DNA of 64,000 bases from Trypanosoma brucei. Taxonomy: Eukaryota. The notes beneath the pieces were generated by a model. The model saw nothing but the letters and a program-made list of their open reading frames with translations, was not told the origin of the DNA and did not search any database. This document shows positions 14,483-30,390 of the stretch, piece by piece. The translations under genes and the position numbers were made by a program. Each line of letters begins with the position of its first letter. The first letter of the stretch is position 1. The DNA is taken from positions 672,001-736,000 of the forward strand of contig CP000071.1 of NCBI GenBank assembly GCA_000002445.1, in the 5' to 3' direction.

Positions 14483-15904
14483 ATGCGGCGGGCTTCGCAT
14501 GTTTGCACGTCGTGTGAACTGCTGGGTTTCCAGAAGCAATTTCTCATGCTCTCCAACCGCGGTAATAGCAGTGGTGATAATGACGTCATCGATACAAGTG
14601 GCGGCAAGTTCCGCAACGGCAATGGGGATGGAAAAGACGACGATGTTGTGACACCATGGAATGTTTCTGCCACCGGAGTGCGGGGTGTCAACTATGATCG
14701 TGTGTTGGTGCGATTTAAGTCCCAACCTATCGGTGAGCCACTGTTAAAAAGGATGCAGGATGTTTGTGTTGAAAGAGTGAAATGCAATAATAGCGAAAGA
14801 GGACACAATGCGGAAAGGAGTGCAGTGGGTGAAGAGGTGCAGCCATTGCATCACTTCTTCAGGCGTGGCATAGCCTTTTCGCACAGAGATTTTGACATCG
14901 CACTGACCAACGTGCAGGAAGCCTTAAGATCGGGAACTCAGGGAGCGTATTTATACACTGGTCGCGGTCCGAGTACGCGGACAATGCATCTTGGACACGT
15001 GATACCCTTTATGCTTACGCGCTACCTGCAGGATGCGCTCGGGCTGCCGCTAGTCATCCAAATCACCGACGATGAGAAGTTTTTTTTTCGCGATGTACCG
15101 TTGCATGACAACCGATGCTCGGACGGAATTGATATTGTAACCGAAAACATAAAGGATATTATTGCATTTGGCTTTGACCCTAAACGGACGTTTATTTTCC
15201 GGAACACCTCCTACATGGGTAGCATGTATCCTACCGTTGTTCGCCTGCAGCGCACAATGACACTCAGTGCCGTGAAGAATACGCTGGGATTGATCGATAA
15301 TGACAATATCGGGAAAGCCTCCTTCGCTGCTACTCAAGCAGCGCCTTGCTTCAGTAGCTCCTTTCCGTGCATCCTTGGAGAACAAGATTTTGAAAAGCCT
15401 CTACAGTGTATTGTGCCATGTGCCATTGATCAGGATCCGTACTTCGTTCTGGCGCGGGCATCGGCATCCCGCATGAAGTATCGAGCTCCCGCACTACTGC
15501 ATACAAAATTCCTTCCAGCTTTGAAGGGGATGAGACTAAAGATGAGTAGTAGTGCCGAGGAGAGCGGTGTGATAACATTGCACGACTCACCGGAGCAAGT
15601 ACAAAAGAAGATGAAGAAGGCTTTCTCCGGCGGTAGTGGGACACTGGACGACATGAAGACGAAAGGCGTGGATTTGGAGGCCGATGTGGCCTACCAATTC
15701 ATTCGGTTTTTCTCTCCGGACGACGAGATGGTTGGGGAGGTATCGGCAAAGTATGTGGTTGGTGAGATGAACAGCTGTTATGTGAAGAGCTTAGCCGCAG
15801 ATGTTGTCGTCCGGCATGTGCTGCGCAACTGGCAAGCGAAGCGAAAGCTGGTGACAGATGAGGAGGTTCGGCGGTTTACGGAGGTGCGCAACATTATGGC
15901 GTAG
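14483..15904 (+). CDS. Tryptophanyl-tRNA synthetase of the eukaryotic/archaeal type. The N-terminal extension suggests an organellar isoform.
   Basis: Collinear with cytosolic TrpRS: YTGRGPSTRTMHLGHVIPFMLTRYLQDALGLPLVIQITDDEKFF (HIGH motif HLGH), IAFGFDPKRTFIF, IGKASFAATQAAPCFSSSFP and LKMSSS (KMSKS motif). The true start may be an internal Met. Confidence 0.9.
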   Translation: MRRASHVCTSCELLGFQKQFLMLSNRGNSSGDNDVIDTSGGKFRNGNGDGKDDDVVTPWNVSATGVRGVNYDRVLVRFKSQPIGEPLLKRMQDVCVERVKCNNSERGHNAERSAVGEEVQPLHHFFRRGIAFSHRDFDIALTNVQEALRSGTQGAYLYTGRGPSTRTMHLGHVIPFMLTRYLQDALGLPLVIQITDDEKFFFRDVPLHDNRCSDGIDIVTENIKDIIAFGFDPKRTFIFRNTSYMGSMYPTVVRLQRTMTLSAVKNTLGLIDNDNIGKASFAATQAAPCFSSSFPCILGEQDFEKPLQCIVPCAIDQDPYFVLARASASRMKYRAPALLHTKFLPALKGMRLKMSSSAEESGVITLHDSPEQVQKKMKKAFSGGSGTLDDMKTKGVDLEADVAYQFIRFFSPDDEMVGEVSAKYVVGEMNSCYVKSLAADVVVRHVLRNWQAKRKLVTDEEVRRFTEVRNIMA

Positions 15905-16145: not shown

Positions 16146-18689
16146 ATGGACGCGCAAGTTGGAGTTGTTCAGCAACCGGTGACCACTAGTTCAACGATTT
16201 GGGTTGGGGAATGTCAATGTCCAAAATGGAAAAAATCTACCCACCGTGCGGTTGAGCAAAACCTGACGACTTCACTAGAATGCGGTGGAGAAAGAGATGC
16301 ACTCCTTGATGTTGCTTGCGGAAGTGGCATTGACATAGATTCTTTCCTTAGAGAGAAGTGGATTCGTGTAGCATTTACTTCTAGTTTCGGAAGTAACAGT
16401 AGGGTCCGCGTGCGGGCGAGAAGGGTGAGGATAGGTAGCCATGAGTTTGTCGTGGTGGAACGGAACGTTTTTGGGTGTGATGACTCGGTATATCGAAAGG
16501 ATAACAAACTTTGGGAGGGTTTGCCCCGTGGGCAGGCCTGCGTATTTGTCGAATCGGGCGACAGGGCTGGGTTTATACCCATAGGTAGACTTCAAGGCCT
16601 GCGGAAGTTCAATTCCTTCGACGGACCATATGGTATTAGGGGAAGGCAACCCGTTAGTGCTGTTGCGATGGAGGCCATCGACGGGGACTGTGGTCATATC
16701 TCTGCGTTCGTGCACACTGGAGAGCGGTATTGGCTTGTTGGGAACAAAGATACTCACCTATTAGTAAGCTTCAGTGTACCAGAGAAAGATATATTCTCCA
16801 ACACCGCCGAAGGTGGTGCCATAACGAATGAGGGGGACAAGCCACTTCAGGGGGCTAACTATTCACCTCCGTCGCTAGCGGTGCGGATAGCAAGGCTCTG
16901 GGGTCAAACGCTTCGAGCACTTCCCGATGAAAAATCATTCGGTTTGCATGAGTTTTTGTCTTCAAACAGGTACACGGCTTGCTTCGACGCTGTGCTACAG
17001 GACTGTGGACACCTTGTCGACTACGGTGAAGATGAACTTCTACAGTTTTACGCTCTGACCCAAAGTGGTGAATCGCTAGCAGAGGGCTTGTGCGTGGATC
17101 CAGTTAGCGCTATAGTAAACCTGCAGTCCTTTGGTCTTCGTGTAGTCCCCTTCCATAGTGAGCAATGCTCATCAGTACCTGAAATTCTGGATCTTGGAAC
17201 GGACGAGTATTCGCAGTACGGGGGCCAGGTTGCGCGTCGTCTGAACTGCAGAGGAGCGGTTATGTACGGCTTGGACGCCCAGGGCATTGTGGTTCGGTTG
17301 TGGAAGTTACCTTCGCACGCATACGTGGTTGAGCGTGCGGCACAGGAGGCCATTGTGACGCATCGCCTGAGCGGTACCGTCTTGCGCGACAAGTTGCGGA
17401 GGAAGTTAGACCGCTTGCCGAAAGAAATACGACGATGTGTCACTGAATGGAGTTCAGCCCGTCTTGAGCCATTGTTGAACCTTGCAGCGTGGTTGCACAT
17501 TATGGGGAAAGTAACACCGGAGGTTGGCCTCGATGGATTGCAGGAGGTCCGTCGCAGTTGGATAACACTTCAACAGCAACTTGTGAAGCACACAAAGGAC
17601 ATGCGTGAGCACTTACAACTGTACGAGCCCCCAGTGGCCGAGGCAGCTATCAATAACCCGGACGTCATCATGTGTGTGGGGCCACAAGGTTGTGGCAAGT
17701 CCACGTTTTGTCGCGCTTTCTGTGTCTTACTCCAGAAGGTAGGTCAGAAGCCTCGTTGGATCAACCAGGACGAAGTGGGTGGTCGAAATGAGTTTATCGA
17801 GGCCATCCGACGTGCCAAGGAATCCGACTGTACACATATTCTTATAGATAAAATGAATCTTGACGATGCGGCACGAAATGCTGACTACGCCTCTTTCAAC
17901 CTAAAAACGATAACCGTCGCTTGGGTACATCCTTGTGATGTAGACGTTATGGTAAGTACGTGCCTAGAAAGAGTATGCCATCGCGGCAATGCACATCGCA
18001 CATTCAGAGGAACCGTCTCCCCGGGGAAAAAGAGGAAAATGATGACAATTATCCGTGGGTGTGTACAGCGATGCGAACCACCAACAACAGGGATTGTTAT
18101 TGAGGCCAATGTCTTGGACCCCCCGGCCATAACCATAGAATCTGTGTGGAAAGGTCTCTGCCGACACACAATGTCTGAACTTCCAGATATTAAAGATCTT
18201 TCCGTTGCCGACGCGTTGGAAATTGCTCGTAGGTACGAATTACTCTTGTCACACTCATCGCGTCCCTTCAATTGCGGCATCATAAAGGTTGTGAATTCAG
18301 AACTTCTTGTCGCCCTTGTGCCTGCAGATTACCTTGAGGGCAAAAAAATGCGCAAGGAACTCGACATCAGCACAATCTATCTTGGTGACAGATCCCATTT
18401 CGATCTTACGCTTCTGTCAGAGTTACAAACGTTGGAAGGTACTTCCATCCAGGTGGCACCTGTCCGTATCGCGTCCGACGCAAAGGCAACAGCAATTGAA
18501 ATTCGTAACAATAACGAATTCCCATGCCAAAATGCACACCCACACATTACCATTGCTACTGCTCCCGGTGTACCAGCGAAGTATAGCAATGAGCTGCTAA
18601 GCAAAGTAAGCACTGAAACAAGCGACATCAAGGTAATGGAGGTGTCACCTGATGTATCCATTTCAGGTGTGTTTCAGTTTGTGCGGTGA
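16146..18689 (+). CDS. P-loop NTPase, polynucleotide kinase-like, with a conserved C-terminal domain that also occurs in the downstream tandem-array proteins. It may be a CNPase-like or tRNA-ligase-like RNA end-processing enzyme.
   Basis: Walker A VIMCVGPQGCGKSTFCRAF at about aa 515. A Walker B-like THILIDKMNLDD follows. The C-terminal 125 aa (LEGKKMRKEL...LEGTSIQV...NNNEFPCQNAHPHITIATAPG...GVFQFVR) align end to end with the 199-aa array proteins. HPHITI is an H-x-T-x motif, as in 2H phosphoesterases. The start is uncertain and may be an internal Met. Confidence 0.65.
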   Translation: MDAQVGVVQQPVTTSSTIWVGECQCPKWKKSTHRAVEQNLTTSLECGGERDALLDVACGSGIDIDSFLREKWIRVAFTSSFGSNSRVRVRARRVRIGSHEFVVVERNVFGCDDSVYRKDNKLWEGLPRGQACVFVESGDRAGFIPIGRLQGLRKFNSFDGPYGIRGRQPVSAVAMEAIDGDCGHISAFVHTGERYWLVGNKDTHLLVSFSVPEKDIFSNTAEGGAITNEGDKPLQGANYSPPSLAVRIARLWGQTLRALPDEKSFGLHEFLSSNRYTACFDAVLQDCGHLVDYGEDELLQFYALTQSGESLAEGLCVDPVSAIVNLQSFGLRVVPFHSEQCSSVPEILDLGTDEYSQYGGQVARRLNCRGAVMYGLDAQGIVVRLWKLPSHAYVVERAAQEAIVTHRLSGTVLRDKLRRKLDRLPKEIRRCVTEWSSARLEPLLNLAAWLHIMGKVTPEVGLDGLQEVRRSWITLQQQLVKHTKDMREHLQLYEPPVAEAAINNPDVIMCVGPQGCGKSTFCRAFCVLLQKVGQKPRWINQDEVGGRNEFIEAIRRAKESDCTHILIDKMNLDDAARNADYASFNLKTITVAWVHPCDVDVMVSTCLERVCHRGNAHRTFRGTVSPGKKRKMMTIIRGCVQRCEPPTTGIVIEANVLDPPAITIESVWKGLCRHTMSELPDIKDLSVADALEIARRYELLLSHSSRPFNCGIIKVVNSELLVALVPADYLEGKKMRKELDISTIYLGDRSHFDLTLLSELQTLEGTSIQVAPVRIASDAKATAIEIRNNNEFPCQNAHPHITIATAPGVPAKYSNELLSKVSTETSDIKVMEVSPDVSISGVFQFVR

Positions 18690-20158
18690 TGAACACCTCT
18701 TTCTTCATGTTCTTTTCGGTATAACCTACAGAAGTAACGATGAGTACATTAACGGTTGTTGTTTGTTGTGCTCATCGATGAGGCATTAATACCACCCTTT
18801 GTTTTTCCTTTTTTTCTTCTTTGAATCATTAATAAATTTTATCTTGCTTTGTACAAACAATTTTACGTGATTTATTTTGTCCTTAGACGTAGACAATAAT
18901 TTTGATGATAGTGTTTATGTGGACGAATATATTTCTTTGCAATTCACGATTGGATCCAAGTATATTGATGGGAACTTGTGACTTAGGGGAAACGAGTGGT
19001 GTGCTGACATGCTCTCGCAGCACTGATATTCCCCCATAATGCTATGCACTCTGAACTGCATGTGTTGTGTCTGTGTGTATGTGTATACATGGTGTGTCGT
19101 ATGTCCTTTTTGTCTCTATACAACAATAACCTTATACTACGCATCTTGTTACATTCCAACTTTTTCTCTCTAAAAATATACCTAATTTTACAACAAATTA
19201 GGAGGAGGAGGAGTGTGTCTTAACATTGTTTATGTGCCGTATCGTGATGACAGATATTCAGCTGACGCCACACTCATCGGATGTAAGAAGATGTGCCAGT
19301 GATTATACGTAATGTCTTTGCTACAGGTGATTGTACGATATGACCATACCGACTAAACCAACCGAGATCAATGAGGCATGAAATGTTCCCGCCCCGTTTT
19401 CAATTAAGTGACGGTGTGATTACAGACAGGATGTAAGTGAGTCAATGTCAATATCTCCGTATTACACCATGAGGACTATTGTCCCCCGTGTCTGACCGCC
19501 GCTTCCACCTCCTCTCTCCCTTCTTTTCTCCTTTCTTGTTTCTTCTCTTTCACTTACACATGATGTCATTTCGTATTCTGCAATACTGACAATAACTTGA
19601 GCGAGACAAGACATATTTGACTACTGGCAACTGAAACCCGCCACCCTCTCGGATTCTTTGGTCCTCCACTAGTTACTCAACGGTATTTCACTTTAGCTCA
19701 GCGTATATATGAATATAACGTCCACGGAGCTATAAGATGTTCCCATTACCTACCTTTATTGTTATCACGAGGCTCAAAAGAACACACTGAGCGTGTACCA
19801 ATGCCCAGTGAGTGGGACAGCCATCGAAGATAAGTGTTTGTTTTACGGCAATGAGGTTCGAATGCGCCTGACGGTTTTTGTCCGACGTGGTGTGGGAAAC
19901 GCCTCAAAGAAGTTACTGCACCTACACCTTCATTTTCACGGGTATATATTATCCCTGGTCACTAATTGATGTTTGGTATGTTTAATCTGTCACTGAACAC
20001 TACTCACTTGTTTCCCCAGTGTAAGTGTGTCATCTTTCCCGTCTGTGCATTCACATGAATTTTAACTTTTATTACTCATAAATTATGTTTTGCCTCAATT
20101 ATATAGACACCGCTTTATACGCAATTTTAAGCAAGGAAGTCCAACAAGGTGAATTATA

Positions 20159-20758
20159 ATGGGTTGTGGAGGTTCAGCTCCTGCTAACAAAGACAGGCAT
20201 GTGGGTGCAGATCCACCAAAACCTTCAGAGCATTCGGAACATTCAAAACCTTCAGATCCTTCAGATCCTGCTGATGCTACTCGTATTCACAAAATCTGTA
20301 CACTTCCACTACATGACAAGGATAAGCCAGTTGCTGCTGCAGCAATTAGGGTTACCGACCCCAAGTGTATTTCGGATATTTTACCTCCGGAATTCCTTGA
20401 GGGAAAGAAGGTGCATAATGAATTTTGTGCAATTACTCTCTCCTTCGATGATGGAAAGCCGGAGGATGAAGGCCTTTTTGAGAAGTTGAAGGAATTGGAA
20501 GGTACTTCCATCGAATTGAAACCAACCCATATTGTGATGAATGAAAAAGTCGCCGCCATTGGGGTGTGTAATAATGATGAATTCCCCTGCCAGGACGCAC
20601 ACCCGCATATCCTCGTTGCAACTGCTCCAGATGCCACACAGGAGGATATTGATGATGTAACCAAGAAAGGAAAGATTGAGATATTTTGCGCGAGAAAACT
20701 TCCCGATCTGCCACCTGATATCACCATCCCAGGTGAGTTTCGTTTCATGCACTGGTGA
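20159..20758 (+). CDS. Array copy 1: a 199-aa protein with an N-terminal MGCGGS dual-acylation (myristoyl-Gly2, palmitoyl-Cys3) signal. Its C-terminal domain is homologous to the C-terminus of the 847-aa P-loop protein.
   Basis: The protein starts MGCGGSAPANKDRH. The region EFLEGKKVHNEF...LKELEGTSIELKPTHIV...CNNDEFPCQDAHPHILVATAP...IPGEFRFMHW aligns with 16146-18689 aa 720-847. It is identical to copy 3. Confidence 0.75.
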   Translation: MGCGGSAPANKDRHVGADPPKPSEHSEHSKPSDPSDPADATRIHKICTLPLHDKDKPVAAAAIRVTDPKCISDILPPEFLEGKKVHNEFCAITLSFDDGKPEDEGLFEKLKELEGTSIELKPTHIVMNEKVAAIGVCNNDEFPCQDAHPHILVATAPDATQEDIDDVTKKGKIEIFCARKLPDLPPDITIPGEFRFMHW

Positions 20759-21821
20759 GTATTTCCCTGTTCCTTGTGTTTCAATGGTTTCACAAGAGTA
20801 CATATGAATTGTTGTAAGTGTGCTGGCAGTTGCTGTTACTCTGATCGATCAAAGAGTTAGTGGTACTGCGCTTCATTACTTTATTACTTTTGCTATTTTG
20901 TTTTACGAATTTACTTGCCTTTGTCCCTTCTTACTTTCCTTTTGATAACCTTTAGATATTTGCGTGTGGAGGTTTTGGTTTACTGTTATACACATCTGGG
21001 GCTATATTCCCTTCATTTGAATTTTATTATTGCGGTATTGACTTTTTCTTTCAAAGAAGATGATGAACGTTGGAATAACGAATAGGGACGATACGAGGGG
21101 AATGAAGAAAAGGCAGAAAAATGATACGGAGAGGAGGGAAAGACAAAATACAAACAATATGTGGGAGAGATATTTTTGCTTTGCTTTGGTTTGATATCTG
21201 TTTTGTTTGTTTTTTTTTCGTTGTGTTCGATGTTTTTTTGATCTTATTTTCCGAGACTTTATTATACAGGATTTGTTTAACTTATGTACTTTATTACCTA
21301 TTGCTTGTGTGCCATTGTTGTGTTACTATGAAACATTTATTGGTGTGGCAGAGTAAAATGTGTTTTGGCATTGCTTTCCACAAGTAACCGAAGGGCACCA
21401 AATATTTGCTACGGGAGAGCACTGAAATGAAAGGAAACAACTAAACACACTGAGCGTGTACCAATGCCCAGTGAGTGGGACAGCCATCGAAGATAAGTGT
21501 TTGTTTTACGGCAATGAGGTTCGAATGCGCCTGACGGTTTTTGTCCGACGTGGTGTGGGAAACGCCTCAAAGAAGTTACTGCACCTACACCTTCATTTTC
21601 ACGGGTATATATTATCCCTTGTCACTAATTGATGTTTGGTATGTTTAATCTGTCACTGAACACTACTCACTTGTTTCCCCAGTGTAAGTGTGTCATCTTT
21701 CCCGTCTGTGCATTCACATGAATTTTAACTTTTATTACTCATAAATTATGTTTTGCCTCAATTATATAGACACCGCTTTATACGCAATTTTAAGCAAGGA
21801 AGTCCAACAAGGTGAATTATA

Positions 21822-22421
21822 ATGGGTTGTGGAGGTTCAGCTCCTGCTAACAAAAACAGGCATGTGGGTGCAGATCCACCAAAACCTTCAGAGCATTCGG
21901 AACATTCAAAACCTTCAGATCCTTCAGATCCTGCTGATGCTACTCGTATTCACAAAATCTGTACACTTCCACTACATGACAAGGATAAGCCAGTTGCTGC
22001 TGCAGCAATTAGGGTTACCGACCCCAAGTGTATTTCGGATATTTTACCTCCGGAATTCCTTGAGGGAAAGAAGGTGCATAATGAATTTTGTGCAATTACT
22101 CTCTCCTTCGATGATGGAAAGCCGGAGGATGAAGGCCTTTTTGAGAAGTTGAAGGAATTGGAAGGTACTTCCATCGAATTGAAACCAACCCATATTGTGA
22201 TGAATGAAAAAGTCGCCGCCATTGGGGTGTGTAACAATGATGAATTCCCCTGCCAGGACGCACACCCGCATATCCTCGTTGCAACTGCTCCAGATGCCAC
22301 ACAGGAGGATATTGATGATGTAACCAAGAAAGGAAAGATTAAGATATTTTGCGCGAGAAAACTTCCCGATCTGCCACCTGATATCACTATCCCAGGTGAG
22401 TTTCGTTTCATGCACTGGTGA
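21822..22421 (+). CDS. Array copy 2: a 199-aa MGCGGS protein. It differs from copies 1 and 3 by D11N and E176K.
   Basis: Same unit, offset by 1663 bp. The substitutions are ANKNRH versus ANKDRH and GKIKIF versus GKIEIF. There is also a synonymous aac/aat change and one spacer SNP. Confidence 0.75.
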   Translation: MGCGGSAPANKNRHVGADPPKPSEHSEHSKPSDPSDPADATRIHKICTLPLHDKDKPVAAAAIRVTDPKCISDILPPEFLEGKKVHNEFCAITLSFDDGKPEDEGLFEKLKELEGTSIELKPTHIVMNEKVAAIGVCNNDEFPCQDAHPHILVATAPDATQEDIDDVTKKGKIKIFCARKLPDLPPDITIPGEFRFMHW

Positions 22422-23484
22422 GTATTTCCCTGTTCCTTGTGTTTCAATGGTTTCACAAGAGTACATATGAATTGTTGTAGGTGTGCTGGCAGTTGCTGTT
22501 ACTCTGATCGATCAAAGAGTTAGTGGTACTGCGCTTCATTACTTTATTACTTTTGCTATTTTGTTTTACGAATTTACTTGCCTTTGTCCCTTCTTACTTT
22601 CCTTTTGATAACCTTTAGATATTTGCGTGTGGAGGTTTTGGTTTACTGTTATACACATCTGGGGCTATATTCCCTTCATTTGAATTTTATTATTGCGGTA
22701 TTGACTTTTTCTTTCAAAGAAGATGATGAACGTTGGAATAACGAATAGGGACGATACGAGGGGAATGAAGAAAAGGCAGAAAAATGATACGGAGGGGAGG
22801 GAAAGACAAAATACAAACAATATGTGGGAGAGATATTTTTGCTTTGCTTTGGTTTGATATCTGTTTTGTTTGTTTTTTTTTCGTTGTGTTCGATGTTTTT
22901 TTGATCTTATTTTCCGAGACTTTATTATACAGGATTTGTTTAACTTATGTACTTTATTACCTATTGCTTGTGTGCCATTGTTGTGTTACTATGAAACATT
23001 TATTGGTGTGGCAGAATAAAATGTGTTTTGGCATTGCTTTCCACAAGTAACCGAAGGGCACCAAATATTTGCTACGGGAGAGCACTGAAATGAAAGGAAA
23101 CAACTAAACACACTGAGCGTGTACCAATGCCCAGTGAGTGGGACAGCCATCGAAGATAAGTGTTTGTTTTACGGCAATGAGGTTCGAATGCGCCTGACGG
23201 TTTTTGTCCGACGTGGTGTGGGAAACGCCTCAAAGAAGTTACTGCACCTACACCTTCATTTTCACGGGTATATATTATCCCTGGTCACTAATTGATGTTT
23301 GGTATGTTTAATCTGTCACTGAACACTACTCACTTGTTTCCCCAGTGTAAGTGTGTCATCTTTCCCGTCTGTGCATTCACATGAATTTTAACTTTTATTA
23401 CTCATAAATTATGTTTTGCCTCAATTATATAGACACCGCTTTATACGCAATTTTAAGCAAGGAAGTCCAACAAGGTGAATTATA

Positions 23485-24084
23485 ATGGGTTGTGGAGGTT
23501 CAGCTCCTGCTAACAAAGACAGGCATGTGGGTGCAGATCCACCAAAACCTTCAGAGCATTCGGAACATTCAAAACCTTCAGATCCTTCAGATCCTGCTGA
23601 TGCTACTCGTATTCACAAAATCTGTACACTTCCACTACATGACAAGGATAAGCCAGTTGCTGCTGCAGCAATTAGGGTTACCGACCCCAAGTGTATTTCG
23701 GATATTTTACCTCCGGAATTCCTTGAGGGAAAGAAGGTGCATAATGAATTTTGTGCAATTACTCTCTCCTTCGATGATGGAAAGCCGGAGGATGAAGGCC
23801 TTTTTGAGAAGTTGAAGGAATTGGAAGGTACTTCCATCGAATTGAAACCAACCCATATTGTGATGAATGAAAAAGTCGCCGCCATTGGGGTGTGTAATAA
23901 TGATGAATTCCCCTGCCAGGACGCACACCCGCATATCCTCGTTGCAACTGCTCCAGATGCCACACAGGAGGATATTGATGATGTAACCAAGAAAGGAAAG
24001 ATTGAGATATTTTGCGCGAGAAAACTTCCCGATCTGCCACCTGATATCACCATCCCAGGTGAGTTTCGTTTCATGCACTGGTGA
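23485..24084 (+). CDS. Array copy 3: a 199-aa MGCGGS protein, identical to copy 1.
   Basis: Same unit, offset by 3326 bp from copy 1. Confidence 0.75.
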   Translation: MGCGGSAPANKDRHVGADPPKPSEHSEHSKPSDPSDPADATRIHKICTLPLHDKDKPVAAAAIRVTDPKCISDILPPEFLEGKKVHNEFCAITLSFDDGKPEDEGLFEKLKELEGTSIELKPTHIVMNEKVAAIGVCNNDEFPCQDAHPHILVATAPDATQEDIDDVTKKGKIEIFCARKLPDLPPDITIPGEFRFMHW

Positions 24085-25134
24085 GTATTTCCCTGTTCCT
24101 TGTGTTTCAATGGTTTCACAAGAGTACATATGAATTGTTGTAAGTGTGCTGGCAGTTGCTGTTACTCTGATCGATCAAAGAGTTAGTGGTACTGCGCTTC
24201 ATTACTTTATTACTTTTGCTATTTTGTTTTACGAATTTACTTGCCTTTGTCCCTTCTTACTTTCCTTTTGATAACCTTTAGATATTTGCGTGTGGAGGTT
24301 TTGGTTTACTGTTATCCACATCTGGGGCTATATTCCCTTCATTTGAATTTTATTATTGCGGTATTGACTTTTTCTTTCAAAGAAGATGATGAACGTTGGA
24401 ATAACGAATAGGGACGATACGAGGGGAATGAAGAAAAGGCAGAAAAATGATACGGAGAGGAGGGAAAGACAAAATACAAACAATATGTGGGAGAGATATT
24501 TTTGCTTTGCTTTGGTTTGATATCTGTTTTGTTTGTTTTTTTTTCGTTGTGTTCGATGTTTTTTTGATCTTATTTTCCGAGACTTTATTATACAGGATTT
24601 GTTTAACTTATGTACTTTATTACCTATTGCTTGTGTGCCATTGTTGTGTTACTATGAAACATTTATTGGTGTGGCAGAATAAAATGTGTTTTGGCATTGC
24701 TTTCCACAAGTAACCGAAGGGCACCAAATATTTGCTATGGGATAGCAATTTAAATGCAGGGAAGGTGAAGGAGGGCAATAATTGGACAATGTAATTTTTT
24801 TTTACTGTTATGTGTTCGATTTGGGTAGGAAAATGTGATTGTGGGAGCTTGTCCTGGGGTGATGGAGGTATTTTTCATTTTTTTGTGATGGTAATGATTT
24901 TTTTTTTTTTGGTCGGCCCTTTGTGTCAACTAGCATCTTCTTTGGAGTAGGTGCATATGTGCGTGCAGCTGCTTTTTAGTGAGCACCTCGTGTTTTAAGT
25001 GTCTTTTTTTATTATACCTTTTTGCTATTACCTTCTTGTTTTTTGCTTTTGAAACGTTTTTGATAATACACTAAAAGAGTAGACAGAAAACAGTAGTTGG
25101 TATATAGAAGAACTTATTAGTCGCTTCTCGAGTT

Positions 25135-25848
25135 GTGATTCTTGTTTGTAGAATTTTTTTTTGGTTTTCTCCTCCTGTGTTGTTGGTTATGTTGATGTTT
25201 CATCTTAACGCCAATAGGCACCTTCTCCAGCCTCCCACGAAGAATCGGCGGGGGGAGGTGGTTTCTCAGACTCAAAGGAATCGTGTGTGTCCCGCTGCTA
25301 TCCGCGCTTACAGATTTTTATCTGATGATATTTCCTCGCAGCTTAACATATGTTGTGCTGTTCTGCAAGTTCCCTTTTCGGGGATCCCCGGCGCCCCTCC
25401 GTCTACAGTAGTGACGAAGGAGTCGGTTCACCCATCGTCAATGCTCGTCGTTTGGAATGATACAACGGCTGCCGAGATCGCCATGTCGTTGCTTCGTGAA
25501 GTACGAGGTGATGTCGATAGTGCTTTTGCTGCTGCAGAGAGTGCTACAAAGGCGGAAGGGGCTGATGAAGTGGTGGGTGCAGCAAACCCCGAAGATAATT
25601 TGGGCGCGTCTCGTGACGATTCCGCCACAGCGGTTTATGTAATCAAGTTGTCCGTGGGCGCCGTGAGCGCTGATGGCAACGCGACGCTGTCACCAATTGC
25701 GTCTGTGGAACTGCGGCAAGTGATTAGGGGGGAGCCGCTGGTCTTTCCCTCGCGACGCGCCGGCATGCCAGCTGTTGATGTACCCATTTCAACTCTCCCG
25801 TACCGTTTGGGTGATCCCATATTCTTTACGTGCAAACGGCTGCGTTGA
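25135..25848 (+). CDS. Hypothetical protein, about 237 aa or shorter.
   Basis: A + strand ORF. The N-terminal part of the ORF overlaps a pyrimidine-rich tract, so the real start is probably an internal Met. No recognisable domain. Confidence 0.35.
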   Translation: MILVCRIFFWFSPPVLLVMLMFHLNANRHLLQPPTKNRRGEVVSQTQRNRVCPAAIRAYRFLSDDISSQLNICCAVLQVPFSGIPGAPPSTVVTKESVHPSSMLVVWNDTTAAEIAMSLLREVRGDVDSAFAAAESATKAEGADEVVGAANPEDNLGASRDDSATAVYVIKLSVGAVSADGNATLSPIASVELRQVIRGEPLVFPSRRAGMPAVDVPISTLPYRLGDPIFFTCKRLR

Positions 25849-26274
25849 ATCTGCCTTTTACTCCTTCCTACACTTAGAGAAGGATGTTGTGTACATGTAC
25901 TATTATTGTGGACTGCTGCGCATGTAAATCGCTGTACTACAGAGCAGGTCCGTAATACTCTAAGGGGAAGCACTTTACTTTTTCCTCGTTGTCCAAGGCA
26001 ATTAACCACTGACTTCGCACTCGTGGAACCCCCTCAAAGGTTGTACATATTATGACGACATGGTCGGTCGCTCATTCTCTCTTTTCTCATTTGGTGCCTC
26101 TTGTCTGGCGTACTAATAGTAGTAGTTTTCCTGAATAGCTGCGCAGGGGCATCCATCACTTCGAGTTTGACGCTTGCGTATAATCCAGCACCCCGTGGCT
26201 TGCTTTAGCTGTCCCCGCGGCAACTGGTAGTGAAAGGAAGGATATATATATATATATATATATCAAAGAAGTAA

Positions 26275-26940
26275 ATGGATGATGTGAAGAGGAAGTCCGC
26301 GATGTTGATGACGAAGGGTATCATTGAGCTTAGGCAGAGTCCACCCGCTTTGGTCTGTACCATTCGGCGTTTCAAGCATCCGATGAGTGGCAAAGAGGTT
26401 ACGTTGTATCCGGTTCCAAACATCGCCGCCCCTCATTACTTTCGCCGCGTTTTGGACGCGCACCATCTGACAAATAATTTTGATAAGGTCCTTTGTGAGG
26501 ATGGTAGGCTGCCGTTTCAGGCTGGCACTGCGCTGGCCAGAAGGCACGAAGTGTTCAAGCGGCTGCTGCCCTTCTTATCCCTTCGCCCAGTTGTTGTAAA
26601 TGGGGATAAGTTTGATGGCATCGTTGAGCGTGATCCCTTGGAGTCTCGCATGGCCTACCAGATGCTGTTGGACGGGGCCGATCCGCCAGTTGACCCACGC
26701 GCGCGCCGTGCCATTGAGCGTATAGAAGGTTACGCAGATGCTACAAAAACAGTTTGCCCATGGGGAGTCTATCACCTGGTGTATATGACGTACAGACTGC
26801 GAACTCTTGGTTACACCGTGGAGAGCGAGGAAGAGTTAGAGGTTGTGGGGATGAAGGAAGTTATGGTCCTCGGTTGTTTCATGGGCATCACTACCTTCTG
26901 GATGATGTACGCCTTATACAGAATGTTGTTCGGCTTTTAG
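26275..26940 (+). CDS. Hypothetical protein, 221 aa, with a C-terminal TM segment.
   Basis: A + strand ORF preceded by a (TA)n tract. The C-terminal hydrophobic helix is VMVLGCFMGITTFWMMYALY. Confidence 0.45.
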   Translation: MDDVKRKSAMLMTKGIIELRQSPPALVCTIRRFKHPMSGKEVTLYPVPNIAAPHYFRRVLDAHHLTNNFDKVLCEDGRLPFQAGTALARRHEVFKRLLPFLSLRPVVVNGDKFDGIVERDPLESRMAYQMLLDGADPPVDPRARRAIERIEGYADATKTVCPWGVYHLVYMTYRLRTLGYTVESEEELEVVGMKEVMVLGCFMGITTFWMMYALYRMLFGF

Positions 26941-27548
26941 TTGCTCTGTGAGCTGCGCAAGCACCTAATGGTGAAAAGATGTTGCATCGTTGCCAGCAAG
27001 AGTTTGGCGCACGAACCAACAGAATCTGGAAAAGGAGTAATACGTGCCACATGAGTTTCGTGGTGGCGCGTCACCCCTTTTCCGTTGCCATAAGATCGTA
27101 TCGTGTTGCCTGGATTGCTCCCCCTCATATGAATTTGAGTGTTTCATTACACAGTGGTATCATCTGTTATTGCTATCGTCGTAGTTTCTCACAACTTTAG
27201 ATGTGCTCGTTTGAGGCGACAACCAAGTGCCTTGTGGGAGGTTCTTCCATTTTTCCACCCCCCCACACGGAGTTGCGGCACAAGCTCATTGAAAGGGGTG
27301 AAAGAAAAAAGGAAAGGAGAGGTACAGTGGAGGATAAAATTGTGTTTAAAATGGCCCCCTTCACTTTTCTTCCTGTCTTCATGCCTTTATATATATATAT
27401 ATATATATATATATTCCTAGCACACTAATTGATCCCTTCACTTCTTCCCTCTACTTAGCAACTTTAGGAAAGGTAGAACGTGAAGCAGAGAGAAGCACCA
27501 AGTTATTCCTCAGAGGGTTTTCTCACCCGGTGTAGCATAAATTAAGAG

Positions 27549-27878
27549 ATGCCTCCCAAGTATGACAATGTCCAGCGGCTCCTCGATGCTGAAAGAAGGC
27601 GGAATGAAGTTATTGCCAATGCGAAAGCTCAGAAGCAGGCGAAGGTGAAGCAGGCTAAAGTTGATGCCGAACGCGAAGTTGCTGCTTTCCACGCGGAGAA
27701 GGAACGCGAATATGAAGCATACCGCCAGCAGCAGGAGGCACTTACCGAGAAAGAAAAGGAACAATTGCGATCTGATACGGATGTCTGGTTACAACAGCTC
27801 AACGCCATGGCGGCCAATCGCATGCAGGCGGTTGAAACTATGATGACTGGTTTGATACTGCGATGTCAGGACAACTGA
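27549..27878 (+). CDS. V-type proton ATPase subunit G.
   Basis: A 109-aa protein. The N-terminal pattern VQRLLDAERRRNEVIANAKAQKQAKVKQAKVDAEREVAAFHAEKEREYE matches the V-ATPase G / Vma10 consensus (QxLLxAEKxAxxxVxxARKxKxxRLKQAKxEAxxEIxxYR). Its size is right for this subunit. Confidence 0.6.
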   Translation: MPPKYDNVQRLLDAERRRNEVIANAKAQKQAKVKQAKVDAEREVAAFHAEKEREYEAYRQQQEALTEKEKEQLRSDTDVWLQQLNAMAANRMQAVETMMTGLILRCQDN

Positions 27879-29685
27879 TGGGTGTAGGAGCAAGATAAAA
27901 GGGAAAGGCAGTTGAATGAACGGATTTGTGGTGTCGGTTAGGCTCAGGGAGGGGGAAGAAGTAAAATAAAATGAAAGGGAGAAGGTAATGGTGAGAATGA
28001 TGGTGTGTATAAGGAAGAGGGAGGGTGAAAAGTGAAGGAAGGAAAAATGAAGAAGGAACTGTAAGGGAGATGAAGAGGTGAGAATTGGAAGAGATTATGT
28101 CGAAAAGGAGGAGAAAACGGGCTTGAGAGGTAGGTTGAGGTTCTAGCATCCAGTGAAGGAACAAATTTGTTAATTTGCTTTTCCCCCAATCTCATATCAT
28201 CGCACTTTGTAAACCTTCTCTGCCGCTTACGCGGTTGAAGGGAGACAGAACGGGGTGACACCAAGAAAGGAGACATTTCTTCTTTCATTTTTTGTGTGTT
28301 TGTTTGTGTGGACGATGCGAGGGGGGGGGACAAAAAAAAAAAAGCGACTTAAACCTGGGGGCTGGGCGTGTAATCGTGCCGCAGTGGCCTTCTCCTGAAA
28401 CCAGTATCTCCCGTTCGCCCACAAAATGTCTCTTTTTATCATTTCCTGCACGATCACATTTGCATACTTTGGCTTCTACCAAATGCGTTTGCCCCGCACC
28501 AGTTTCTTTCTTTTTGTTTTTTTTCGTTATTTTGTTGGCGCTGTTGATCTTATTTTTGTGTGTTTGTGCTTCTCCCCCTCTCCTCTCTCTTTCCCTCTTT
28601 TGAATGATGCGATGTGTTTTGTGTCTTTGCTTCAACCCATAACATTGCTTTCATTCAACATCCTTGTTCCTATATACGGACATGGCACCTTTGTGCCCCT
28701 TCTTTTCCATTCTCTTTCCAAAAAAAGACAAAACAATAAAAATGTGCAACTCCCTGTTCCTGTGTTGGTTGAATTGTGGGACAGTTCTTGCTATTCATTC
28801 AAAATATTACGTTTCTTTAAACTGAGGGGAGCGACGTTGCCGTCATTTGCATCAGTCCCTTACCCTCCTCCTCTCTTCCATGTTGTTAGACTTTCATGGA
28901 GTAATGAAGCTCAAATATTCTTATTACGCATGTGTCTCCGGTACGTTTCATATGTTTTTCGTTTCTCTCCGTCTTTTTCTTTTCTTTTTTCTCCCTTTTC
29001 TTTTTCCCCATGCGGGTGTGACATGGCTTTGTCGCGTTGAAGGAACGTTAAGCATTGAGCCATTCAGTAGTCCACTACACTGGCTGTACCAATTATTATT
29101 TTTCTTTTGATTCATACATTTACAAATACATAAGGGAGAAATTAATAATTTAAAAAAAATAATTGATCAACAGTAAGAAAATAAGGATAAGTTAAATTAA
29201 CAAAAAGTGTGGAGGAGACAGCTTTTCTCCCCCTCCCTTGTGGTGCATCTGTGCGCCTGTGGACGGTCTTTACACATTTTTTTGCCGCGGGGAAATATCT
29301 CCCCTTATTGTTCTTTGTTTGCAGCCAACAATTAATATAATTCATTTGGTGCTATTTTAGTCGTATTAGTTGGCAAACTTCTTCACCTTCGGAGAAAGCA
29401 GCACGAAAAGGGAAGAGTCCCGGCGGGAGATTTACCCTCCTGTATTTTTCTTCAGAAAAAAAAAGAGAACAGGTCTGTCTGATAACGAATACGGTTGCAG
29501 GGGTAAGTAAAGAAGTATATATACATAGAAAGAGCAGTTTTGAGGTGAAGCTCATCTGGAACAGGGCAAAGTGGATAGCACCACACAATTAAGATAGAGT
29601 GTTTTAGTTATTTGTCGCTGGTGCCACTTTTGTCGGTCTTCACAATCTTTATTTTGAGCAGTTACTCACTGCCTTAAGTAACACC

Positions 29686-30390
29686 ATGAGCTCTGCTGAG
29701 CGGCATGCGGTTATGCTTCAGGATTGGCTCTTCGCGTGGGAAATCATCGCATCTTTCAGCTCCCCACGAACAGTGTGTGACCTTGAGACCTTATCACGTG
29801 ATGTTCATAAGGTGATACGTGACAGTTCCACTGGCACACGCCTTATGCAGAGGTATTGGAACGTGCAATACCACCGACTCGTATGGGGAGATGAAGACCT
29901 TGATATCGGGAAACGTACACTTCATTTCTCCCTACCGCGCGCCTCCGGGCGAAAGAACTGGAAGAAGTTGTATCGGGAAGAGTATCCGCTTTGGCTCGCT
30001 CGCACCTTTCAGGGGATGGGCTCGCGTAACAATGATATCAATGAAGCAAAGGTGCGATTTCAGGTGGAGCCGGCGAATGAACTGCTAAGTGGAGAGGCGA
30101 TGGAAAGCCTGGAACTTACGCAGGAGGAAACTGTCGCACGGCGTGTAGCAAAAGGTTTTGTCCGTGTGGAAGAAGGAAGCGGTAGTGGGCCCAACTCAGT
30201 GGATCGCAGGGGCAGGCGGAAGAGTGGTGGCAGTCAAAACCGCAAAGAGAAGCTGGTGGCCAAAGATCCGGCGGAGGGTCTTCAGCGTGAGGACTACAAA
30301 AATGACCGGCGCCTTCAGAAGCACAGGACAAAACATAATAAAGGCAAGGGGGGCACATGGGACGGGTACGCAGATGGTGAGTTTGATTAG
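29686..30390 (+). CDS. Hypothetical protein, 234 aa, with a basic C-terminal region.
   Basis: A + strand ORF. Lys/Arg-rich tail RRGRRKSGGSQNRKEK...KHRTKHNKGKGG. No family recognised. Confidence 0.4.
   Translation: MSSAERHAVMLQDWLFAWEIIASFSSPRTVCDLETLSRDVHKVIRDSSTGTRLMQRYWNVQYHRLVWGDEDLDIGKRTLHFSLPRASGRKNWKKLYREEYPLWLARTFQGMGSRNNDINEAKVRFQVEPANELLSGEAMESLELTQEETVARRVAKGFVRVEEGSGSGPNSVDRRGRRKSGGSQNRKEKLVAKDPAEGLQREDYKNDRRLQKHRTKHNKGKGGTWDGYADGEFD

Follow-up and report, generated by a model that had tools for sequence, protein, structure and literature searches.

POMP39 proteins of Trypanosoma brucei share a degenerate cyclic phosphodiesterase domain with a neighboring tRNA-ligase-like protein

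The stretch of DNA analyzed, termed the window, comprises 64,000 nucleotides of Trypanosoma brucei contig CP000071.1 (positions 672,001 to 736,000 of the forward strand) and contains the gene Tb927.8.2250 for an 847-amino acid (aa) protein followed on the same strand by a tandem array of three genes for 199-aa proteins of the POMP39 group (Table 1). The long protein has the domain order of the tRNA ligase Trl1 and ends in a cyclic phosphodiesterase (CPD) domain of the 2H phosphoesterase type. This domain is shared with the POMP39 proteins, in which it follows a short leader with a putative dual-acylation signal and has lost three of its four catalytic residues. The probable source of the short genes is an older neighbor gene encoding a CPD domain only, and not a fresh partial duplication in T. 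brucei.

The shared domain and its catalytic motifs

The product of Tb927.8.2250 is 100% identical to XP_847058/AAZ12992 of T. brucei brucei TREU927 (2.48-Mb chromosome 8), with the gene ID and annotation taken from the supplements of published proteomes and an orthogroup table, and the open reading frames (ORFs) of the array match XP_847059-61. The array units are 99.3-99.5% identical to one another (blastn), differing at 8-18 positions. In the supplement of PMC7861527 Tb927.8.2070 is named POMP39-1 and Tb927.8.2280 is named POMP39-4, and from this numbering the array is taken to consist of POMP39-2, -3, and -4, with Tb927.8.2270 as POMP39-3. The POMP39 name stems from a mitochondrial outer-membrane proteome. 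POMP39-1 (199 aa) and Tb927.8.2080 (186 aa, annotated with a tRNA-ligase CPD domain) lie about 17 genes upstream, outside the window. The E175K substitution of the middle array copy, POMP39-3, also occurs in POMP39-1 at its distant locus, which hints at exchange between POMP39 loci. A T. b. equiperdum entry, RHW71046.1, carries the database name "Proteasome maturation protein 39A."

Table 1. Features of the Tb927.8.2250 and POMP39 locus, in window positions
Feature	Position	Strand	Residues	Basis or remark
Tb927.8.2250, 847-aa Trl1-like ORF	16146-18689	+		DUF7920 + polynucleotide kinase + 2H CPD; Pfam, Foldseek, protein match
DUF7920 domain	16347-17345	+	68-400	Pfam 2.9e-112
Polynucleotide kinase domain	17658-18080	+	~505-645	catalytic motifs intact
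tRNA_lig_kinase (PF08303) match in long protein		+	508-645	Pfam 1.3e-5, 25.8 bits vs 22.7-bit cut-off
CPD (2H) domain of long protein, block common to the 199-aa proteins	18207-18686	+	688-847	BLASTP, Pfam PF08302, Foldseek
tRNA_lig_CPD (PF08302) match in long protein		+	767-842	Pfam 9.2e-9, 35.6 bits vs 23-bit cut-off
First H-x-T of long protein, degenerate	18363-18371	+	D740-I-S742	32-member alignment
3' tract nearly identical to Tb927.8.2080	18423-18686	+	760-847	attributed to gene conversion; protein-level comparison
Second H-x-T of long protein, intact	18543-18551	+	H800-I-T802	32-member alignment
Tandem array, three 1663-bp units with POMP39 genes	19781-24763	+		repeat spacing 1663, blastn
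POMP39-2 (Tb927.8.2260), 199 aa	20159-20758	+	1-37; 38-199	leader; complete degenerate CPD domain
First H-x-T position in POMP39-2	20426-20434	+	C90-A-I92	His to Cys, Thr to Ile; alignment
Second H-x-T position in POMP39-2	20606-20614	+	H150-I-L152	Thr to Leu; alignment
POMP39-3 (Tb927.8.2270), 199 aa	21822-22421	+		XP_847060; D12N, E175K vs neighbors
POMP39-4 (Tb927.8.2280), 199 aa	23485-24084	+		protein identical to copy 1

BLASTP with composition-based statistics aligns residues 688-847 of the long protein with residues 38-197 of the short protein across a single gap (57/160 identical, 36%; 56% positives; E=6e-30), and the remaining segments of this comparison have E>=2. The tblastn match is found in all three array copies and nowhere else in the window. 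A first-pass annotation, made from the sequence letters, had placed the long gene and the three short ORFs with their MGCGGS starts correctly and had proposed the sharing of the C-terminal domain, but it gave the extent as ~125 aa, and the shared block of ~160 aa is the whole phosphodiesterase domain with its N-terminal helix included. At the DNA level the 3' end of the long gene and the short genes are only ~69% identical over 134 nucleotides (blastn), indicating that the duplication is old.

The first 37 residues of POMP39 are of low complexity (rich in Pro, Ser, Asp, Glu, and His), as might be expected if the similarity were compositional or if the short ORFs were non-functional relics. This reading, the first half of which had been raised in the first-pass annotation as a way in which its proposal could fail, can practically be discounted, because the alignment lies outside the leader and keeps its significance after composition correction and because POMP39 is detected by proteomics with 83-84% peptide coverage. 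In one differentiation time course (published proteome supplement), POMP39-1 was detected with 84% coverage, 14 peptides, and an intensity of ~1e9, Tb927.8.2080 with 31%, 2 peptides, and ~5e7, and Tb927.8.2250 with 7%, 4 peptides, and ~2e8. The proteome authors termed POMP39-1 bloodstream-form specific.

On its own POMP39 scores below the Pfam threshold for PF08302 (13.2 bits, E=0.061, cut-off 23 bits), and it is tied to the family by a profile search at 2e-61. Sequence searches of the PDB with POMP39 alone and with the CPD profile gave nothing meaningful, and the link to 2H structures came from fold comparison alone. The word-indexed homolog search with POMP39 returned only T. brucei-group relatives, the short forms elsewhere being found by an exhaustive representative search. 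The AlphaFold2 model of POMP39, computed from a 13-sequence CPD alignment, has a mean predicted local distance difference test (pLDDT) score of 72.6, with residues 1-54 disordered and a core of residues 58-199 having block-mean values of 82-93 except for a dip around residues 171-190. The top 49 matches of this model in a Foldseek search of the PDB are all the CNPase catalytic domain (probability about 1.0, TM-score about 0.5). A bilobed α+β 2H fold is therefore predicted for POMP39 by the model, which is the outcome that the first-pass annotation had expected of structure prediction.

Catalytic positions were tabulated over an alignment of 32 family members. The second H-x-T motif is invariant (32/32), and the G-x-x-P-x-(Y/E/L)-S-N motif that follows it is present in 31/32. 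The first H-x-T motif is likewise present in 31 of the 32, the sole exception being T. brucei, where it reads D-I-S, and the long protein of T. b. equiperdum has D-I-S at this position too. A frameshift behind D-I-S and the "GDRSHFDLTLLSE" segment was considered and rejected, as neither alternative frame encodes the ancestral "HITT...GGKPPxD." Because no alternative frame restores the motif and T. b. equiperdum has the same residues, the change in T. brucei is real.

In POMP39 both motif positions are altered and DATQEDIDDV replaces GVPAKYSNEL, so that the protein is without three of the four catalytic residues and without the near-invariant YSN motif. The degraded signature agrees with the first-pass annotation, which had correctly quoted HPHITIATAP in the long and HPHILVATAP in the short proteins, with Thr-802 corresponding to Leu-152, as a change of H-x-T to H-x-L; the alteration of the first motif, to D740-I-S742 in the long protein and C90-A-I92 in the short one, had gone unseen. 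The complete two-motif 2H signature is found in neither POMP39 nor the T. brucei long protein. Tb927.8.2080 has both motifs intact (FHITT and HPHITI), and judged by these residues it is likely the only one of the trio active as a cyclic phosphodiesterase. In Tb927.8.2250 of T. brucei the kinase alone appears to be intact.

POMP39 could still be an enzyme, with His-150 and Cys-90 forming a modified active site of changed substrate or chemistry. The predicted structure keeps the fold and the cleft, the surroundings of the second motif (EFPCQxAHPHI) are conserved with the long protein, and the protein is abundant, with its ORFs intact in all T. brucei subspecies. Such an activity is nevertheless judged improbable, since 2H catalysis is defined by both histidines and both Thr/Ser residues, the His of the second motif is essential in the T. 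brucei tRNA ligase TbTrl1 (H802A does not complement), and three of the four residues are gone together with a YSN motif kept by 31/32 relatives.

Architecture and family of the long protein

The DUF7920, kinase, and CPD matches of the long protein each exceed the curated Pfam cut-off. The AlphaFold2 model of the 847-aa protein (mean pLDDT 69) is aligned by Foldseek with the fungal Trl1 ligase-kinase structure (LIG-KIN, 9r3w) over 681 columns at 1.3e-12, with the Trl1 kinase-CPD structure (KIN-CPD, 6u05) at 2e-12, with the Mucorales RNA kinase 9drz at 25% identity and a TM-score of 0.73, and with the CNPase catalytic domain at about 1e-5. A PDB sequence search with a profile of ten orthologs matched Trl1 KIN-CPD chains at about 3e-5. 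Foldseek, Pfam, and the motif parallels place the ligase-kinase-CPD order of Trl1 in the long protein. The first-pass annotation had described the shared domain as following a kinase-like module, in the manner of enzymes in which a 2H domain comes after a polynucleotide kinase. The tRNA_lig_kinase match and the alignments with 6u05 and 9drz bear this out, with a kinase fold around the P-loop and a 2H fold for the domain behind it, but the kinase-CPD layout turns out to be part of a complete Trl1 arrangement of three parts, the N-terminal one being a decayed ligase-like domain.

Tb927.8.2250 is a kinetoplastid paralog of the tRNA ligase Trl1 that is distinct from TbTrl1. Identity of the two was considered and rejected, as length and motif positions differ. 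TbTrl1 has 870 aa with KLAG (K107), GxGKT at 400-404, and HVTV at 739 and 802, whereas the 847-aa protein has its P-loop at 512-520 and none of the motif strings of TbTrl1. TbTrl1 is essential in all three activities, and the K107A, K403A, and H802A mutants each fail to complement. Tb927.8.2250 has been reported close to Alba4 in starvation stress granules.

An exhaustive profile search with the CPD alignment gave 667 proteins at E<=1e-3, many of them of 700-1000 aa with the DUF7920-KIN-CPD layout, and the family includes members from Bodo saltans, Angomonas, the aphelid Amoeboaphelidium, and many environmental sequences. Within DUF7920 the elements KxNGE, GSK, the motif III Glu, (S/T)EG, and KxK followed by ...Y.(M/L)ER are kept by all aligned members outside the Trypanosoma/Leishmania group. 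They correspond to motifs I, Ia, III, IV, and V of Trl1-LIG, which in the fungal enzyme read TLKENG for motif I, SKHS for Ia, EGFVIR for IV, and FFKYK for V (PMC6379707). Three DUF7920 members have sub-threshold matches to Pfam RNA-ligase models, and no DUF7920 protein reaches the threshold of these models (best 1.2e-4 and 8.7e-4), so that the ligase homology rests on the fold alignment and the motif correspondence. The motif correspondence taken with the sub-threshold matches indicates that DUF7920 is very probably a covalent nucleotidyltransferase (RNA ligase) domain.

The four ligase catalytic residues are intact in the Bodo, Angomonas, aphelid, and environmental members. In Trypanosoma all of the ligase motifs have decayed. 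The motif I lysine is lost in all six Trypanosoma species and also in two Leishmania-like sequences, L. tarentolae and one relative. In the long protein of T. brucei this Lys is replaced by A177, two Glu residues by D281 and R369, and the second Lys by P388, and given these losses in motifs I, III, IV, and V the name ligase is not warranted for it. The kinase motifs GxxGxGKST, NQDE, DKxN, and RxxxRGxxHR are kept in every trypanosomatid, and GPQGCGKST, NQDE, DKMN, and RVxxRGxxHR (R609-x3-R613-G-x2-H-R) are conserved in all orthologs of the long protein. Judged by its motifs, the long protein of T. brucei appears to be a pseudo-ligase whose kinase is still live, and DUF7920 would be a second Trl1-like ligase family that has turned pseudo-ligase in the parasites. 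A deep-branching long-family member of 1183 aa from a public read-set assembly has an RNA-recognition motif inserted within the ligase-like domain (Pfam 1.8e-14) and keeps all the ligase motifs.

Origin of the short genes

The CPD domain is also encoded as a stand-alone protein in T. grayi (178 aa), T. congolense (182 aa), Bodo saltans (182 aa), and further trypanosomatid assemblies. In a Bodo-like bodonid, a contig of a public read-set assembly carries both genes on one strand, with 245 bp between the end of the short gene and the long gene downstream of it. The short and long proteins of Bodo saltans have consecutive protein numbers, and the contigs recorded for the two are equally long (9775 bp). 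The T. grayi short gene is followed by orthologs of the window ORFs 25135-25848 and 26275-26940 and so stands where T. brucei has the POMP39 array. In a published orthogroup table the T. congolense long gene is 000582900 and the next ID, 000583000, is the short gene, which is placed in one orthogroup with Tb927.8.2260/2270/2280/2070/2080. The table lists no short gene for T. vivax or T. cruzi and groups T. cruzi pseudogenic fragments with the long gene of that species (OrthoFinder table, PMC10361982 supplement). CPD-only copies in T. cruzi are truncated or frameshifted and start MLDGKKVQKAFHVTT; the satellite gene may have decayed in the T. cruzi lineage.

A new N terminus in the array copies, as noted by the first-pass annotation, is present as the 37-residue leader. 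The MGCGGS start is found in all three array copies, in POMP39-1, and in the T. b. equiperdum ortholog of Tb927.8.2080. The consensus for dual acylation is Met-Gly2 and Cys3 with a small residue or Ser at position 6, and the POMP39 leader fits this putative signal with Gly2, Cys3, and Ser6. The elements MGCGGS...ADPPKPS...DPADA are common to the leaders of POMP39 and Tb927.8.2080, pointing to a common short ancestor. An MG-start leader was not found in the short proteins of T. grayi or T. congolense, and the acylation signal may be specific to the T. brucei group. The TREU927 model of Tb927.8.2080 starts MMGCGGS and its T. b. equiperdum ortholog MGCGGS, and the second Met is probably the true start in TREU927 because the first would mask the myristoylation signal. 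A 12-residue segment, SEHSE(H/Y)SKPSDP, is present in POMP39 and in Tb927.8.2080 of T. b. equiperdum and is missing from Tb927.8.2080 of TREU927, a distribution that suggests sequence exchange between the leaders too.

The first-pass annotation had read the short genes as a partial duplication of the long gene. The homology stands, and the position of the array directly after the long gene and in the same orientation, together with homology that covers exactly the terminal domain, would suit a recent partial tandem duplication of the T. brucei long-gene 3' end joined to a captured 5' exon-like leader. A recent event of this kind is unlikely. POMP39 and the long gene have only 35% protein identity and the low DNA identity given above, whereas Tb927.8.2080 has 74% overall and 97.5-100% in the 3' tract. 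T. grayi has a short CPD gene at the position of the array, as does T. congolense to judge from its gene IDs, and the bodonid has one beside its long gene. The leader is common to POMP39 and Tb927.8.2080, and a search for kinase-domain remnants upstream of the POMP39 ORFs found none. The part of the earlier proposal that is disfavored is thus a fresh T. brucei duplication, an older CPD-only neighbor gene being the probable ancestor.

In a neighbor-joining tree the short and long CPD domains cluster by species, with POMP39 on a long branch. The CPD identity between short and long proteins is 92% in T. congolense and 54-57% in the bodonids, and POMP39 is 39% identical to Tb927.8.2080. The identity of Tb927.8.2080 and Tb927.8.2250 is unevenly distributed, with 25-70% per 20-residue window up to residue 767 and 78/80 identical residues over aa 768-847 in TREU927; the equivalent last four windows in T. 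b. equiperdum have 79/79. Both T. b. equiperdum genes carry T762M, which neither TREU927 gene has. The sharp mosaic and the co-varying T762M argue that gene conversion operates between Tb927.8.2080 and Tb927.8.2250, and the pattern, with tract boundaries mapped at the protein level only, reads as the signature of continuing conversion between loci ~17 genes apart.

Clustering by species would also be produced if the short CPD genes were independent, recurrent partial duplications of the long gene of each lineage. Two observations fit such recurrence: relative to the long gene, the short gene is upstream in the bodonid but downstream in Trypanosoma, and the short proteins of T. grayi, T. congolense, and T. 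brucei have N-terminal leaders unrelated to one another. Set against this are the mosaic boundary and the T762M co-variation of Tb927.8.2080 and Tb927.8.2250, which show conversion operating, and the short-gene position common to T. grayi and T. brucei. Recurrent duplication is therefore regarded as possible but rather doubtful.

Proposed explanation, related systems, and neighboring features

The explanation considered likely as a whole combines a satellite origin, escape from conversion, and a membrane-tethered pseudoenzyme. A CPD-only satellite gene beside the long gene would have been held similar to the long gene of each species by gene conversion. One T. brucei satellite lineage, Tb927.8.2080, would still be exchanging sequence with the long gene at its 3' end, while the POMP39 lineage would have escaped conversion, diverged, and lost the catalytic residues and the YSN motif. 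POMP39 would then have been amplified to four copies and become the most abundant family member at the protein level. With predicted myristoylation on Gly2 and palmitoylation on Cys3 it would be anchored on the cytosolic face of membranes, the location given by fractionation proteomics being the mitochondrial outer membrane. The dead 2H cleft may bind phosphorylated ribose without hydrolyzing it, in the form of RNA ends or nucleotides with a 2',3'-cyclic phosphate or 2'-phosphate, or may serve as a scaffold, and the CPD chemistry of the T. brucei family would be left to Tb927.8.2080.

Several points weigh against this explanation. Species-wise clustering could also result from repeated independent partial duplications, and the mosaic pattern argues for conversion specifically in the Tb927.8.2080/Tb927.8.2250 pair only, the 2070/2080 locus and T. 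congolense having been compared as protein. The structural models derive from shallow alignments (10-13 sequences) with mean pLDDT of 69-73. The acylation is predicted from sequence alone, and the outer-membrane assignment rests on a fractionation proteome. POMP39 also keeps H150 and has a Cys at the other His position, and an unorthodox activity is conceivable.

A more specific form of the explanation makes POMP39 a lipid-anchored pseudo-phosphodiesterase of the mitochondrial outer membrane whose dead cleft captures RNA ends, or nucleotides, bearing a 2',3'-cyclic phosphate or a 2'-phosphate, with Tb927.8.2250 as the kinase, Tb927.8.2080 as the phosphodiesterase, and POMP39 as the binder. This form is speculative and very unlikely to be correct in full. 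T. brucei imports all its mitochondrial tRNAs, and RNA-end capture by POMP39, if true, would tie a module derived from RNA repair to tRNA traffic or quality control.

Among known systems, the CPD domain of Trl1 (fungi, plants, and TbTrl1; PF08302) is alike in the 2H fold, in the two H-x-T motifs of nearly all family members, and in the preceding kinase. The long protein differs in belonging to a separate DUF7920-KIN-CPD family outside the TbTrl1 ortholog group, with a compact CPD domain of ~160 aa, and POMP39 differs in being stand-alone, in its acylation leader, in its destroyed catalytic signature, and in scoring below the Pfam cut-off. Vertebrate CNPase is the best structural match for both models and, as in the long protein, combines a P-loop kinase-like domain with a 2H domain behind it. 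The enzyme carries a lipid modification and is bound to membranes, with one isoform reaching mitochondria. CNPase is C-terminally prenylated and catalytically active, whereas POMP39 is predicted to be N-terminally acylated, has neither the kinase domain nor the catalytic residues, and is only 12-15% identical. Yeast Cpd1, the plant Appr>p CPDase, and bacterial and archaeal LigT represent another 2H branch that is not Trl1-like-derived, has no lipid anchor, and is catalytically intact.

Separate genes for Trl1 modules have precedent in the kinase/CPDase and ligase of Branchiostoma (PMC10598085) and likewise in the stand-alone ligase and kinase of Mucorales (PDB 9drz, 9d8a). Those split modules are active and replace the fused enzyme, whereas T. 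brucei also has the fused, essential TbTrl1. A second kind of parallel is offered by T. brucei metacaspase 4 (MCA4), which is dually acylated. MCA4 is a pseudopeptidase, a catalytically dead enzyme paralog with a role in bloodstream forms (PMC3220528); its fold and enzyme family are unrelated to those of POMP39, and the analogy is one of evolutionary logic only.

A full-text literature search found no paper discussing DUF7920/PF25536, the POMP39 gene IDs (Tb927.8.2070, 2260, 2270, and 2280), or POMP39 as a CPD/2H protein. The first-pass annotation had not recognized the pairing as described, and no paper describing the relationship was found, but the POMP39 names and the orthogroup with Tb927.8.2080 had already been published. 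The CPD link is already implicit in the database annotation of Tb927.8.2080 and Tb927.8.2250 and in the orthogroup table. Neither the fold nor the enzyme family is new, and lipidated pseudoenzymes are a known principle.

POMP39 is among the more abundant uncharacterized proteins of bloodstream-form T. brucei and has a proteomics-derived name only; its predicted fold, its origin, and its likely non-catalytic status make it a testable object. The second Trl1-like family, DUF7920-kinase-CPD, extends across kinetoplastids, an aphelid, and many environmental eukaryote-like sequences, and its DUF7920 ligase domain looks active in bodonids and decayed in trypanosomes. tRNA ligase domains are considered as trypanosome drug targets, and a paralog with a conserved kinase could affect the interpretation of such experiments. 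On a small scale the locus would clearly illustrate how gene conversion can keep a satellite gene close to its parent in sequence, and how a sister copy that breaks free can turn into a pseudoenzyme.

The upstream neighbors within the window encode an SDR-family protein (PTR1 by the proteome table), a RING protein, Hus1, and a class-I aminoacyl-tRNA synthetase of the Trp/Tyr type. The synthetase, at 14483-15904 (+) directly upstream of Tb927.8.2250, has a long N-terminal extension (Pfam tRNA-synt_1b 4.5e-19) and by gene number is presumably Tb927.8.2240, which we take to be the mitochondrial tryptophanyl-tRNA synthetase. Its placement next to a tRNA-ligase-like gene is probably a coincidence. 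ORFs of 168, 140, and 107 aa overlap each POMP39 gene, at 20287-20803, 21950-22466, and 23613-24129 on the minus strand and at 20166-20489 with its repeats in another frame of the plus strand. They recur three times because the array unit repeats, and nothing was seen to mark them as genes. The GC content is 0.40-0.43 over 18001-30000, which takes in the array and its flanks, compared with 0.47-0.55 elsewhere in the window.

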